Below are positions 33,395-40,469 of a stretch of DNA of 64,000 nt, piece by piece. The number at the start of each line of letters is the position of its first letter. Positions within the stretch are counted from its first letter, which is position 1. The DNA comes from a virus (taxonomy: Duplodnaviria; Caudoviricetes). The DNA lies in the IMG/VR virus record IMGVR_UViG_3300020577_009322, positions 64,001-128,000 of that record. One strand, 5' to 3'. The position numbers were made by a program, and so were the translations under genes. The notes under the pieces are model-generated. The model searched no databases. It saw only the letters and a list, made by a program, of their open reading frames with translations, and had not been told where the DNA came from.

Positions 33395-34054
33395 ATGGCA
33401 TCATTACCAAAATGTATATATAAAACAATAGTATTATCTGCAGGTGAGACGTTTGTACTACCGCCTGGTGCGGAGGTAGTAAGTGTATCAAATAGTTCAG
33501 CAATATCGTCAAGTTGTCCTGGAGATTTACCTGAAGTAGCAATAAAATGCTATAGAATTAGATGGGTAGTAAATAAAGATCCGGAAGGAAGAATTACCTA
33601 TATTAGTCCTTTTTTAGGACCACAGGGAATTAGTATACCTAATACAAATAATGCTTGGGAAGATGATGATGATGATAGTTTACCAATAATAATTAACAAG
33701 GTTTATGTTGGTGGACAATTAGTTGATGCGGGATCTATAAATTGTAGAGATCTTGCTTCATTAGAAAGTGTAATTCATGGATCTAGTGGAGGTGGAGCAA
33801 TAACTGAAAGAAAATATTTAACAGGAACTCAATTGGGTGCTCTAACAGTAGCGGAAACAGTCAGTTGGGGAAGTCGTTGGAAATCAGGTTATGTATGGTT
33901 TGAAATATACTTTAAGGCACCTGAAGAAATAGGAAAACAGGTATATTTAGAATTAGGTGGAGGTAATGGAAATATAGCAGACATACCTCGTTTGTTTGCA
34001 GCTGAAATTGATTGTACCGCATATCCAACAACAACAGTAGTAACTAGTTGTTAA
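33395..34054 (+). CDS. Putative structural protein
   Basis: Beta-rich ORF in the structural operon. Confidence 0.55.
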   Translation: MASLPKCIYKTIVLSAGETFVLPPGAEVVSVSNSSAISSSCPGDLPEVAIKCYRIRWVVNKDPEGRITYISPFLGPQGISIPNTNNAWEDDDDDSLPIIINKVYVGGQLVDAGSINCRDLASLESVIHGSSGGGAITERKYLTGTQLGALTVAETVSWGSRWKSGYVWFEIYFKAPEEIGKQVYLELGGGNGNIADIPRLFAAEIDCTAYPTTTVVTSC

Positions 34055-34069
34055 AAATAAAATAATAAT

Positions 34070-34651
34070 ATGGCAGCTTGTTTAATAACAACAGGAGGGA
34101 CTTCAGGAACTTTAAGAATTGACTATAAATTAGGATCTGATAGTAATACTATCTTCTCAAATTATGGTGATATAATATATATTGATGATTCTGCTACAGA
34201 TATAACATACACACGATTAAGTGGAGATGTTACTGCAGCTTCTGGATGTGTAACAATAACTGCACGTCCACAAACATGTTATAAGTTTATATATGATACA
34301 GTTGATGGAACATCACTTCCAACCGATTCTACTATAGACGCTATAGTAGTTGGTACAACATATACATTCACAGAAGCTTCATACAGATTGTCTGGAACAG
34401 AGGCTATTATCTATGGTATAAATACCGAATTAAATAATGATAATATAAAAGTTACAGCAATCAAAGTTGATCAATTAACAGAACCATACTTTAATGTTTC
34501 TCTTATAGTAAAAATTATCGGGACAGATATTCCACGACTAAGAATTGTAACAACAAATGGTAATTATGTTTATCTAATTGGAACAGTATCGGTAGATTGT
34601 GTACCGAGTGGATATATTGATTTAAACACTTCCTCTATACCAGTAATTTAA
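34070..34651 (+). CDS. Putative structural protein
   Basis: Thr-rich beta ORF. Confidence 0.55.
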   Translation: MAACLITTGGTSGTLRIDYKLGSDSNTIFSNYGDIIYIDDSATDITYTRLSGDVTAASGCVTITARPQTCYKFIYDTVDGTSLPTDSTIDAIVVGTTYTFTEASYRLSGTEAIIYGINTELNNDNIKVTAIKVDQLTEPYFNVSLIVKIIGTDIPRLRIVTTNGNYVYLIGTVSVDCVPSGYIDLNTSSIPVI

Positions 34652-35710: not shown

Positions 35711-35742
35711 TTTGGTAAATTAAAAATAAAATCGTATATTTG
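35711..35742 (+). promoter_or_regulatory. Bacteroidota-type promoter for tRNA block 1
   Basis: TTTG-N20-TATATTTG. Confidence 0.8.
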
Positions 35743-35746
35743 CACT

Positions 35747-35824
35747 ATGAAAGCAGTAGAAAAATTGTATGGCTGCGGTTGTGGTAAACCAAAACCAGTA
35801 GTGGTTAAACCACCTTCAAGATAA
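35747..35824 (+). CDS. Micropeptide MKAVEKLYGCGCGKPKPVVVKPPSR
   Basis: Directly after the promoter. Confidence 0.45.
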   Translation: MKAVEKLYGCGCGKPKPVVVKPPSR

Positions 35825-35835
35825 AAATAAAAACT

Positions 35836-35922
35836 ATGATAACAGTAAATCATGCATGGCCCATCTTTACGCAATGTCCAACAGGACAATGTGAGGGACT
35901 GTGTACGTGTATTAAGAATTAA
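35836..35922 (+). CDS. Attenuator leader peptide 1 (MITVNHAWPIFTQCPTGQCEGLCTCIKN)
   Basis: H/W/P/F/T/Q/C codons match downstream tRNAs; contains the antiterminator strand. Confidence 0.75.
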   Translation: MITVNHAWPIFTQCPTGQCEGLCTCIKN

Positions 35923-35942
35923 CTCTTAACCACAACCGAACT

Positions 35943-35970
35943 AACCCCTCCATAAAAAGAGGGGTTTTTT
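35943..35970 (+). terminator. Attenuator terminator 1
   Basis: aacccctc/gaggggtt plus T-run, 5 nt before tRNA-Pro. Confidence 0.85.
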
Positions 35971-36581: not shown

Positions 36582-36657
36582 ACTCCGTTAGCTAAACTGG
36601 ATACGGCACCAGAATACGAATCTGGAGATTTTGAGGGTTCGAATCCTTCACGGAGTA
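36582..36657 (+). tRNA. trnR: tRNA-Arg(ACG)
   Basis: ccaga-atACGaa-tctgg. Confidence 0.9.
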
Positions 36658-36952
36658 CAATTTTAAATAATAATTTTCCTAAAATAAAATATATACTATA
36701 TCTTTGTTCTATGATAGGAAAAATAATAAAATCAGATATGAAATCTAGGATCAGTTATAATATAACTGGTTTAGATAAGGGAATATTATTTGTTAATAAA
36801 AATACATCATCATTATCTCCAGATGGATATGAAGGAAAATGTCCACAAGGGGAACTATTTAACAATAATGGAAATAGTTGGAGATCGAGTTGTTGATAGA
36901 GGGAGACTTTCTATAGAAGTAGATGAGAATGGATATGTTACTATAAAATAAA

Positions 36953-36984
36953 TTTGGTAATTGTTAAAAATAGTTGTATATTTG
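36953..36984 (+). promoter_or_regulatory. Bacteroidota-type promoter upstream of tRNA block 2
   Basis: TTTG-N20-TATATTTG. Confidence 0.8.
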
Positions 36985-37027
36985 TGCTGCACTGACCAAG
37001 TAGGCGTGTTACTAAAAATATACAAAC

Positions 37028-37333
37028 ATGAAGAGTACAATTAGAGTGGACTTTCAGGGTCCGGAGACATCGTCTCAAAATGGTTTTGAACCAGTTATTA
37101 GAGTAAATTTAGTAGAAAGTGATGACACACGAGATAAGTTACTAAAGACATTCTTTCAGTCATTAGGTGGAGAAAGTTCCTGGCTACATGTAAAACATGT
37201 AAAAATTGATCAATCGTGTCATTCTGGATTAATTAATGATAGTATAGTAATTACTCCAGTAAAAGAGGCTGATATTGAGAACTTGAAGAAAGAGATAGAA
37301 GATAGAATAAATGATAAGAGAAATATTTTTTAA
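37028..37333 (+). CDS. Hypothetical protein
   Basis: ORF track, after the promoter. Confidence 0.7.
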   Translation: MKSTIRVDFQGPETSSQNGFEPVIRVNLVESDDTRDKLLKTFFQSLGGESSWLHVKHVKIDQSCHSGLINDSIVITPVKEADIENLKKEIEDRINDKRNIF

Positions 37334-37350
37334 ACCTTAAATATAATAAT

Positions 37351-37461
37351 ATGATAATAGGATTAATTATTAGTGGAGTAGTGGGTTTCATAGTTGGAGC
37401 CTTGGTATTTAGAAATAATGCTAAAAAGGGAGAAGAAATTATTGATAATCTTAAAAAGTAA
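37351..37461 (+). CDS. Small single-TM protein MIIGLIISGVVGFIVGALVFRNNAKKGEEIIDNLKK
   Basis: Manual translation. Confidence 0.65.
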   Translation: MIIGLIISGVVGFIVGALVFRNNAKKGEEIIDNLKK

Positions 37462-37473
37462 TAAAGACAACTA

Positions 37474-37542
37474 ATGCAACAATTTTATATGATAGTTAGA
37501 AATATTTTAGGGGCGGATGAAAAATCTGGCTCTAGGGAATAA
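37474..37542 (+). CDS. Attenuator leader peptide 2 (MQQFYMIVRNILGADEKSGSRE)
   Basis: Run M-I(ATA)-V-R(AGA)-N-I(ATT)-L-G-A-D-E-K matches block 2 tRNAs; 3' end holds the antiterminator gctctaggg. Confidence 0.8.
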   Translation: MQQFYMIVRNILGADEKSGSRE

Positions 37543-37567
37543 TTTTACTATCTTATAATAGAAAGTT

Positions 37568-37604
37568 AACCCTGGAGCATATTAAGCTTCAGGGTTTTTC
37601 TTTT
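37568..37604 (+). terminator. Attenuator terminator 2
   Basis: aaccctggagc-atattaa-gcttcagggtt plus T-run, just before tRNA-Lys. Confidence 0.88.
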
Positions 37605-37609
37605 AAAAT

Positions 37610-37684
37610 ACCTTCGTAGCAAAATGTGGCTTTGCTCCTGACTTTTAATCAGAACAAAAATGGGTTCGACTTCCTTCGAAGGTA
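37610..37684 (+). tRNA. trnK: tRNA-Lys(UUU)
   Basis: cctga-ctTTTaa-tcaga. Confidence 0.8.
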
Positions 37685-37687
37685 CTT

Positions 37688-37762
37688 GGGATCTTAGCAA
37701 AAATGATATTTCTTCAGCCTCTTAAGCTGAATAAAAGTAGAGTTCGATTCTCACAGATCCCA
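37688..37762 (+). tRNA. trnK: tRNA-Lys(CUU)
   Basis: tcagc-ctCTTaa-gctga; atypical D-arm. Confidence 0.75.
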
Positions 37763-37772
37763 CATAAGTATA

Positions 37773-37804
37773 TTTGGTGGTTCGAAAATTATTTCGTATA
37801 TTTG
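37773..37804 (+). promoter_or_regulatory. Bacteroidota-type promoter of the HNH gene
   Basis: TTTG-N20-TATATTTG. Confidence 0.75.
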
Positions 37805-37808
37805 ATAT

Positions 37809-38339
37809 ATGAAAGAAAGAATAGAACAATTAAGAAAAGAAGGAAAAAGTTATAGTGAAATATCAAAGATAACTGGATTAGTCAAATCTACAATATCATA
37901 CTATGTAGGAAATAGAACTGGAAAAGGTAAGCTAACAGCTGAAAAAAGAAATTGTAGAAATTGTGAAAAAGAAATCAGTTCTCCAAAAGTTTTCTGTGAT
38001 AAAAAATGTGATTTTGAATATAAACAGAAACTTAGGTTAGATAAATTTGAAAAAAGCAATTTGTGTACAAATAATTCTATTAGAAAAGCACTTATTTCTA
38101 TAAATGGAAATAAATGCAGTATTTGTGAAATCTCTGAAATATGGAATGATAGGAAATTAACTATGCATGTAGATCATATTGATGGAAATTCTGATAATAA
38201 TGATAATAAAAATGTTAGATTAGTATGTCCTAATTGTCATTCTCAACTAGAAACATCTAAAAATAAAGTTAAAAAACAAACAAAAAGAAATAAATACTTA
38301 AGAAAATACAAAGGTTATATAGATGCCCCTGTCGTATAG
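37809..38339 (+). CDS. HNH homing endonuclease with N-terminal HTH, inserted in the tRNA array
   Basis: HVDHIDGN..N...NVRLVCPNCHSQ. Confidence 0.9.
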   Translation: MKERIEQLRKEGKSYSEISKITGLVKSTISYYVGNRTGKGKLTAEKRNCRNCEKEISSPKVFCDKKCDFEYKQKLRLDKFEKSNLCTNNSIRKALISINGNKCSICEISEIWNDRKLTMHVDHIDGNSDNNDNKNVRLVCPNCHSQLETSKNKVKKQTKRNKYLRKYKGYIDAPVV

Positions 38340-38397
38340 TGATTTAATATCTCTCTCTTACAAAGAGAAGACGGCAGTTTGATTCTGCACAGGGGTA
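38325..38397 (+). tRNA. trnV: tRNA-Val(UAC)
   Basis: tctct-ctTACaa-agaga; overlaps HNH stop. Confidence 0.8.
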
Positions 38398-38402
38398 CAA
38401 AT

Positions 38403-38669: not shown

Positions 38670-38885
38670 ATGAAAAATTACATAGAAGATCAAATTAGAA
38701 AAGGTTACAGGGTATACGACCTTAAAGAAATACTCGGAGAAACACCAATGCAATCAGATATAGATAATTTGATTGAAAAATTAGGTCCTAATAAGTTAGG
38801 TGAAGTTGATGAAAATGGTTATCTTTACGTGAAAACAGATCAATCGTGGAGAAATATTTTAGGACAGCGGATGGAGAAATGGTGA
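38670..38885 (+). CDS. Hypothetical protein (start MKNYIEDQ)
   Basis: Track ORF N-terminus overlaps tRNAs; ATG right after tRNA-Met. Confidence 0.6.
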   Translation: MKNYIEDQIRKGYRVYDLKEILGETPMQSDIDNLIEKLGPNKLGEVDENGYLYVKTDQSWRNILGQRMEKW

Positions 38886-39319
38886 ATATAATCTCTCACT
38901 GTAGAGAAATATTAGCAAAAGAACCAGATGCTAAGATATTAATTGGAACTGACTCACAGGATGAGGATGGAAAAAGTAAGTATTGTACTGTAATAGTATT
39001 TAGATATGGATTACGTGGTGCTCACTTTATCTACAGTAAGGATGATAGGAAAAAGATAAGAGATATTTTCACTCGTTTATTTACTGAGTGTGAGTACTCA
39101 CTAGAAATTGCTGAGCATATAACTAAGAATACTAGTTATAAAGTATCAACAATAGAGTTAGATTTCAATGATTTCAAGAAGACAAAATCAACACCTTTAA
39201 TATCAGCAACAAAGGGATGGTGTGAATCTTTAGGTTACTCAGCTACTCTAAAAAGTGGTGAAATGTTTGCTTGTAAAGCAGCAGATCATATCCTAAGACA
39301 TCCATCATTATATAAATAA
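38846..39319 (+). CDS. RNase H-like YkuK (DUF458) family protein
   Basis: LIGTDSQ, RLFTE, IELDFN, CKAADH. Confidence 0.8.
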   Translation: MEKYFRTADGEMVNIISHCREILAKEPDAKILIGTDSQDEDGKSKYCTVIVFRYGLRGAHFIYSKDDRKKIRDIFTRLFTECEYSLEIAEHITKNTSYKVSTIELDFNDFKKTKSTPLISATKGWCESLGYSATLKSGEMFACKAADHILRHPSLYK

Positions 39320-40089: not shown

Positions 40090-40161
40090 ATGAAGAAACT
40101 ATATACATATTATTCGTTAAGTCTCTTGTCCTTAAATGGACTAGCTAGGAATACTATGTGA
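40090..40161 (+). CDS. Attenuator leader peptide 3 (MKKLYTYYSLSLLSLNGLARNTM)
   Basis: 11 of 12 consecutive codons are Leu/Tyr/Ser, matching block 3 tRNAs; contains the antiterminator agctagga. Confidence 0.8.
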   Translation: MKKLYTYYSLSLLSLNGLARNTM

Positions 40162-40192
40162 TAACAGTGGGCAATCGTTAGATCATTCGTGT

Positions 40193-40223
40193 AAATCCTG
40201 GCTTTAATTAGTCAGGATTTTTT
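40193..40223 (+). terminator. Attenuator terminator 3
   Basis: aaatcctggct-ttaatt-agtcaggattt plus T-run, just before tRNA-Leu. Confidence 0.88.
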
Positions 40224-40386: not shown

Positions 40387-40469
40387 GGAAGAGCGCATTG
40401 TGAGAGCTTATCCGTCCTGAAAACGGTGAAGGTGTAATAGCTGTGAGAGTTCGATTCTCTCCTCTTCCG
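40387..40469 (+). tRNA. trnS: tRNA-Ser(UGA)
   Basis: tccgt-ccTGAaa-acggt; long variable arm; atypical D-arm. Confidence 0.8.

Follow-up and report, generated by a model that had tools for sequence, protein, structure and literature searches.

In the trpL leader of Escherichia coli, charged tRNA-Trp is sensed at two tandem codons, and amino-acid synthesis is controlled through the alternative pairing of four RNA segments: 1 with 2 when no ribosome is present, 2 with 3 when the ribosome stalls, and 3 with 4 when it reaches the stop codon. The multivalent attenuators of enterobacteria sense several amino acids at once, the ilvGMEDA leader through Leu, Val and Ile codons and the thr leader through Thr and Ile codons. 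In these systems, a short leader with codons for several amino acids is combined with mutually exclusive protector, antiterminator and terminator hairpins, such that a stall on any of the sensed codons leads to read-through into genes for biosynthetic enzymes. Leader-peptide attenuation is also found on a gene of the translation apparatus, i.e., in the pheM leader of pheST, an aminoacyl-tRNA synthetase operon, where tandem Phe codons sense one amino acid and the product is a cellular protein. In T-box riboswitches, it is likewise the status of a tRNA that selects a terminator or an antiterminator before translation-related genes; here, uncharged tRNA is bound directly, with a specifier codon making the contact together with a conserved T-box sequence, and translation is not needed. 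As for the tRNA genes carried by phages, current ideas hold that they compensate for differences in codon usage or replace tRNAs destroyed by host defences.

Here we describe a unit in a phage genome (unit 2) which, judging from its sequence, is probably a trp/ilv-type, ribosome-mediated (leader-peptide) transcription attenuator that would control the phage’s own tRNA genes, a reading to which we assign a probability of about 0.8. Like the ilv and thr leaders, the unit combines a short leader carrying codons for several amino acids with mutually exclusive protector, antiterminator and terminator hairpins, and a stall on any sensed codon is predicted to cause read-through; like trpL, it can be divided into four segments with the corresponding pairings. 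Unlike the ilv and thr leaders, its output is tRNA genes and not biosynthetic enzymes, it samples ten amino acids mostly once instead of clustering repeated codons, it is carried by a presumed Bacteroidota phage and lacks a Shine-Dalgarno sequence, and it is one of three units that partition a near-complete tRNA set. With tRNA genes downstream, along with a homing-endonuclease gene and an RNase H-like open reading frame (ORF), it does not fall into the class of amino-acid biosynthesis attenuators. Unlike in trpL, the sensed species and the product belong to the same class of molecule, which would close a direct feedback loop. It differs from pheM in the number of amino acids sensed, in the use of mostly single rather than tandem codons, in its RNA product and in being viral, and from T-boxes in having no T-box match while retaining a conserved open frame.

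The stretch of DNA analysed (hereafter the window, 64,000 nucleotides) corresponds to bases 64001-128000 of one 155,463-bp contig, which has a G+C content of 31.6% and carries 27 tRNA genes. The gene products of this genome include a large terminase, a portal and a major head protein, and its terminase shares ~26% identity with the terminases of crAss-like, Flavobacterium, Cellulophaga and Azobacteroides phages. This kinship, taken with promoter-type sites of the TTTG/TAnnTTTG pattern and with genes that lack a Shine-Dalgarno sequence, suggests that the phage infects a Bacteroidota host. No close cultured relative was found, as a blastn search of 36600-38400 against phage records matched HNH genes only. 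Relatives were retrieved using the structural protein encoded just upstream of tRNA block 1, together with a gapped DNA pattern derived from the leader, and among them, four additional lineages share the three-block layout (L001, L088/L090/G002, L091 and G001). When the RNase H-like ORF was used as query, no relatives were found in viral contigs and three distant matches (30-37% identity) were found in phage records; the exonuclease gene as query yielded 80 loci, none of which contained a tRNA array.

In each of the three tRNA blocks of the window, a terminator adjoins the first tRNA and a short ORF precedes that terminator. Block 2 holds twelve tRNAs for ten amino acids, located between its own terminator (terminator 2) and the next one on the + strand, and its main features, along with those of its leader, are as follows:

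37474-37542, + strand: leader ORF 2, with 22 codons plus a stop codon (37540-37542) and a homologous frame in relatives
37489-37524, + strand: predicted sensor run 2, leader codons 6-17, covering all ten amino acids of the block-2 tRNAs
37610-37763, + strand: tRNA-Lys(UUU) and tRNA-Lys(CUU), called by ARAGORN, with Rfam tRNA scores of 42.5 and 38.2 bits
38325-40044, + strand: the rest of block 2, i.e., tRNAs for Val, Arg(UCU), Asn and Met, an ORF, and tRNAs for Gly, Glu, Asp, Ile(UAU), Ile(GAU) and Ala
38846-39319, within block 2: RNase H-like ORF (Pfam RNaseH_like PF04308, E 6e-19)

An earlier note on this DNA, made from the letters alone, had taken the leader for an ORF of 12 codons. The actual frame is the one of 22 codons listed above, and position 37474 is the start that is homologous in the relatives. 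The same note had named conservation of the ORF in relatives as a test of its reading, and we found an open frame of 27-28 codons, in the same place and with a homologous ATG, in all four further lineages. The leader starts in an A-rich context without a Shine-Dalgarno sequence, and such start sites are normal in Bacteroidota. Leader 2 is presumed to be translated.

The run at 37489-37524 encodes Met Ile Val Arg Asn Ile Leu Gly Ala Asp Glu Lys. When checked against the list of tRNA genes, it indeed contained ten of the ten block-2 amino acids within twelve codons, with Leu as the sole extra. Its codons include ATA and ATT, matching the two Ile tRNAs, AGA for tRNA-Arg(UCU), and the rare GGG and GCG, which make up 7% of the Gly codons and 3% of the Ala codons of the genome, respectively. 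The proposal that the run is isoacceptor-specific was only partly upheld: ATA, ATT or ATC, and AGA are present in 5/5 lineages, but AAG, the codon of tRNA-Lys(CUU), never occurs in the run, making the checklist incomplete at the level of isoacceptors. Most of the amino acids are sampled by one codon, which may mean that the leader senses severe tRNA loss and not mild starvation.

We evaluated the run against chance in two ways. Using the amino-acid composition of this genome’s long ORFs, we calculated an exact probability of 3.3e-5 for a 12-residue window to include all ten, and the union bound across the 11 windows of the ORF is 3.7e-4. Empirically, in a six-frame translation of the whole 155-kb genome, 2 of 310,856 twelve-residue windows held all ten, one of them being leader 2 itself, and no such window was present in the genome’s long ORFs. 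There is little freedom in this test, since block 2 is bounded by terminators (37568-37596 and 40193-40220) and not by the analyst’s choice. A chance origin of the codon run is unlikely and was rejected on both the exact calculation and the window counts.

We then considered how the RNA of this region might fold. Three elements were delineated:

37485-37558, + strand: protector hairpin (segments 1:2), part of the minimum-energy fold without a ribosome
37529-37537, + strand: 5' strand of the antiterminator (core of segment 2), within leader codons 19-22
37568-37596, + strand: intrinsic terminator (segments 3:4) with 11 pairs, followed by a T tract up to 37604

In the protector hairpin, the part that codes for the run forms pairs with the ORF's 3' end and with bases past the stop codon, an arrangement that would sequester the antiterminator strand when the ribosome is absent. 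The minimum-energy fold of 37474-37604 consists of this hairpin plus the terminator (-44.5 kcal/mol, z -7.2), and the same combination was obtained in G001 (z -5.8) and L091 (z -4.6). The pairing between 37529-37537 and 37570-37578 that the earlier note had put forward, 9/9 with one G:U, was confirmed on the letters. Together with an inner helix, this antiterminator is the structure of lowest energy for 37521-37585 (-22.0 kcal/mol, z -5.0, a value reached by 0/200 shuffles), compared with -17.2 kcal/mol for the terminator alone. The latter is built of a 5' arm (37568-37578), a loop (37579-37585) and a 3' arm (37586-37596), and ends ~6 nt 5' of tRNA-Lys.

A structure this strong (z -7.2), in which a hairpin adjoins the 5' end of a tRNA, i.e., the site cut by RNase P, could conceivably act as RNA only, either in the processing or stability of the tRNA precursor, or through direct codon-anticodon sensing as in a T-box, without any translation. 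We regard such an element as highly improbable here. No Rfam family other than tRNA was detected in 37474-37604 at E values up to 1, T-box included, and a T-box identity was rejected on this basis; moreover, all five lineages have a frame of 22-28 codons that is open and begins at a homologous start, and the match to the amino-acid set, which is found in one reading frame, would be left unexplained.

Returning to the leader-peptide attenuator, we modelled the effect of a stalled ribosome by treating every codon of the leader as a stall site, with the RNA free to pair from a point 11 or 14 nt beyond the first base of the A site. When the ribosome was placed at codons 1 to 15/16 of leader 2, 9-10 of the 11 terminator arm bases paired upstream, and when it was placed at codon 17 onward, or at the stop codon, none did. 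The Glu and Lys codons that end the run lie at the edge of the productive stall zone, where a stalled ribosome would mask much of the antiterminator strand. Lys, the amino acid of this edge-of-zone codon, is also that of the two tRNAs which, alone in block 2, lie solely behind attenuator 2. Extending the scan to 18 units (three blocks in as many as six lineages, together with outgroup leaders from L003, L004 and L097), we found that stalls within the cognate run permitted the antiterminator in 18/18. In most units the ends of the stall zone and of the run were about two codons apart at most, and in leader 2 of L088 and L091 the run reached up to five codons past it; the distance from stop codon to terminator stem was 20-34 nt. 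At attenuator 2, codon-dependent stalling and regulated read-through are predicted.

The complementarity between the terminator arm and the RNA upstream of it exceeded that of dinucleotide shuffles for leader 2 of the window (z -4.3), as well as for leader 2 of L088 (-4.9), L091 (-3.6) and G001 (-4.6). Among the 24 terminator-like hairpins of the genome, a strong excess of upstream complementarity was seen only before block 2 (z -4.8) and block 3 (-3.3), with the other 22 ranging from -1.7 to +1.3, including the hairpin before block 1 (-1.6). The protector hairpin, the terminator and the complementary strand are kept in all four other lineages. In seven units, the antiterminator strand was located in codons 18-24 and formed 9-13 pairs with the terminator arm, and in L001 the letters are wholly different with 11 complementary pairs kept. 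Pairing was further counted on an alignment (A3) of five leaders. For the antiterminator, 97.7% of cells were paired, with two compensatory pairs, a count that 83/500 shuffles also reached, the alignment covering five lineages only; for the terminator, 100% of cells were paired across the five sequences, again with two compensatory pairs, and 31/500 shuffles reached that count. With five sequences, these compensatory counts are not statistically decisive by themselves. Within the shared arm, it is the same two columns that covary with both of its partners, and sliding the partner by one column reduced pairing to 62% or less.

The content of the run is likewise retained in the relatives. In each of the four, leader 2 contains all ten amino acids in 10-15 consecutive block-2 codons, in shuffled order: L001 and G001 accommodate them in exactly ten codons (per-window P 1e-6), and L088 and L091 within 13 codons. 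Where the third position of the run is occupied by Ala instead of Val, Val is found later in the run. It is thus the amino-acid inventory of leader 2 that is conserved and not its peptide sequence, as expected of a sensor but not of a functional micro-protein. At the codon level, Ala is encoded by GCG in 4/5 runs, GGG and GTG are also used, and these rare G-ending codons are the ones read by U34 tRNAs.

Two sister units with the same arrangement lie on either side of unit 2:

35836-35966, + strand: sister unit 1, with its leader at 35836-35922 and its terminator at 35943-35966
40090-40220, + strand: sister unit 3, with its leader at 40090-40161 and its terminator at 40193-40220

Block 1 encodes tRNAs for Pro, Thr, Cys, Phe, Trp, Gln, His and Arg(ACG), and leader 1 has His, Trp, Pro, Phe, Thr, Gln and Cys inside nine codons. 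Block 3 encodes two tRNAs for Leu, together with Ser and Tyr; in the window, Leu, Ser and Tyr account for 12/22 codons of leader 3, and across leaders 3 their share is 45-55% vs a background of 20%. The leaders also differ in their Arg codons: Arg is encoded by AGA in every leader 2, and by CGA, CGA, CGT and CGC in the four leaders 1 that have Arg, CGN codons making up a share of 0.22 of the Arg codons of the genome. This split matches the presence of tRNA-Arg(UCU) in block 2 and tRNA-Arg(ACG) in block 1.

Two side observations were made around these units. Between tRNA-Leu(UAA) and tRNA-Ser(GCU), the stretch 40387-40468 gives a weak tRNA-Sec match (24.8 bits, E 0.15); relatives have a tRNA-Ser(UGA) at this place, and the stretch may be an unusual or decaying tRNA. 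A small ORF at 35747-35824 encodes a conserved Gly-Cys-Gly-Cys-Gly-Lys-Pro-Lys core and is preceded by a promoter-like site in every relative. It recurs at 11093-11137 in L001, 11070-11135 in L085 and 11500-11598 in L003, and is fused in frame to leader 1 in G001; being present in a tRNA-less relative too, it is not tied to the tRNA blocks.

The leaders of the relatives were also compared with their tRNA content. L085, whose structural protein shares 63% identity, is devoid of tRNA genes in the flank; leaders 1-3 are absent, with only an unrelated small ORF present. In the more distant L003, L004 and L093, a single tRNA-Cys lies behind a terminator, and the leader-1 homologue of these tRNA-Cys-only relatives carries two TGT codons in tandem within the stall zone and lacks His, Trp and Phe. 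Against the proposed matching, G002 has lost the tRNAs for Val, Arg and Asn with its leader 2 unchanged, and in the L090/G002 lineage tRNA-Trp was not seen, yet TGG is kept in leader 1.

These comparisons bear on the possibility that the switch is real but reports translation capacity in general, i.e., overall elongation speed or ribosome availability during shut-off, stress or antibiotic exposure. Ten amino acids represented mostly by single codons would amount to a broad sample of decoding, the ten amino acids of block 2 already make up 59% of the background, and the fold evidence fits a general and a specific sensor alike. A general sensor, however, has no need of leaders with disjoint, block-matched compositions, of the partition of Arg codons into AGA and CGN between leaders, or of Cys-rich leaders in relatives with tRNA-Cys only, and for these reasons we find this explanation improbable.

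We further characterized the promoters and inserted genes around block 2, of which two are central:

36953-36984, + strand: nearest promoter-like site upstream, of the Bacteroidota pattern (-33 TTTG, ~20 nt, -7 TAnnTTTG)
37773-38339, + strand: promoter-like site (37773-37804) followed by an HNH homing-endonuclease gene (37809-38339)

The upstream site would drive the ORFs at 37028-37333 and 37351-37461 and then leader 2. Near-identical promoter-like sites are found at 35711-35742 and 37773-37804, such that three copies flank the tRNA region, and in L001, L088 and L091 the promoter motif is located immediately 5' of leader 2. Window-wide, the generic Bacteroidota -33/-7 pattern is in mild excess (6 occurrences vs 2.6 in shuffles), a sigma-70 promoter scan gave no excess over shuffles, and no full promoter motif was found in the gap of ~6 nt between terminator 2 and tRNA-Lys. 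The HNH gene overlaps tRNA-Val with its 3' end and, having its own promoter-like site, likely provides a bypass of attenuator 2 for the tRNAs from Val through Ala. The RNase H-like ORF would share a transcript with the tRNAs, and its product may act on their precursors; a gap of equal size separates tRNA-Met and tRNA-Gly in all relatives, and in L001 a homologous ORF is found there.

HNH genes with promoter-like sites occupy different array positions in different lineages, often exactly between the terminator and the first tRNA. Besides the gene at 37773-38339 of the window, they were observed at 11380-11925 in L001 and upstream of tRNA-Pro, tRNA-Lys and tRNA-Leu in L090/G002. In G002 the HNH insertion follows a duplicated 5' part of tRNA-Pro, and in the L090 lineage the 3' arm of the terminator was rebuilt after the insertion, with the antiterminator complementarity kept. 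Other modules around the attenuators are also shuffled between lineages. A hydrophobic ORF of ~25-36 codons is conserved with a variable position relative to the leaders (37351-37461 in the window, 11143-11220 in L001, and a hydrophobic small ORF just 5' of leader 2 in G001), and the 101-codon ORF at 37028-37333, which precedes leader 2 in the window, has its homologue before leader 3 in G001.

A terminator in front of a tRNA is not diagnostic by itself, since two isolated tRNA genes of this phage, tRNA-Ser(UGA) and tRNA-Leu(GAG), have the strong terminator of the preceding gene directly 5', with no leader ORF and no antiterminator:

2038-2147 of the window and 34043-34170 of the genome (outside the window), - strand: the isolated tRNA loci

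By analogy, terminator 2 could mark the end of an operon next to an unrelated micro-protein gene, with the tRNAs expressed by constitutive leak-through or from internal promoters. In line with this, leader 2 comes third among the ORFs of a small operon in the window, HNH promoters lie inside the array, and the sequence of leader 1 is itself conserved and includes four to six Cys. Nonetheless, the arm complementarity at unit 2 is far above that of shuffles and of the 22 other hairpins of the genome, and it covaries; the leaders are missing where the tRNAs are missing; and leader 2 conserves an inventory, not a peptide. An ordinary operon end is thus, in our view, an unlikely account of this locus.

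Under the preferred reading, that of a leader-peptide attenuator, the unit would operate as follows. RNA polymerase, starting from the upstream promoter, would transcribe the 22-codon leader with a ribosome translating alongside. If all of codons 6-17, one or two for each amino acid of the block, are decoded fast, the ribosome would arrive at the end of the ORF and cover 37529-37537, the terminator would fold, and transcription would stop ~6 nt short of tRNA-Lys. Slow decoding of even one of these codons, its tRNA being scarce, would stall the ribosome on segment 1, freeing segment 2 to pair with the 5' arm of the terminator, and this 2:3 pairing would let the polymerase read into the tRNA block. 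In case no ribosome is present, the 1:2 hairpin would form and the terminator would win. The outcome would be a negative-feedback supply circuit, in which each block is transcribed only while the tRNAs it encodes are limiting, be it early in infection, upon host shut-off, or after tRNA cleavage by host defences. Such a circuit would be self-limiting, as its product is the very molecule that is sensed.

We found no report of leader-peptide attenuation of tRNA genes in the full-text literature searched, which is not proof of novelty; if the proposed reading is true, unit 2 would be the first case as far as that literature shows. It would mean that the phage gauges, for each codon, how fast decoding proceeds and tunes its tRNA synthesis accordingly, and it would provide a simple and portable sensor of individual tRNA availability. 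The attenuator also makes the hypothesis that phage tRNAs replace depleted ones directly testable with reporters. More speculatively, the three units might function as block-specific, partly isoacceptor-resolved sensors of the tRNA pool that induce replacement after host shut-off or attack by anticodon nucleases, serving as an inducible counter-defence and a supply homeostat, a strategy that is perhaps general to tRNA-rich phages.
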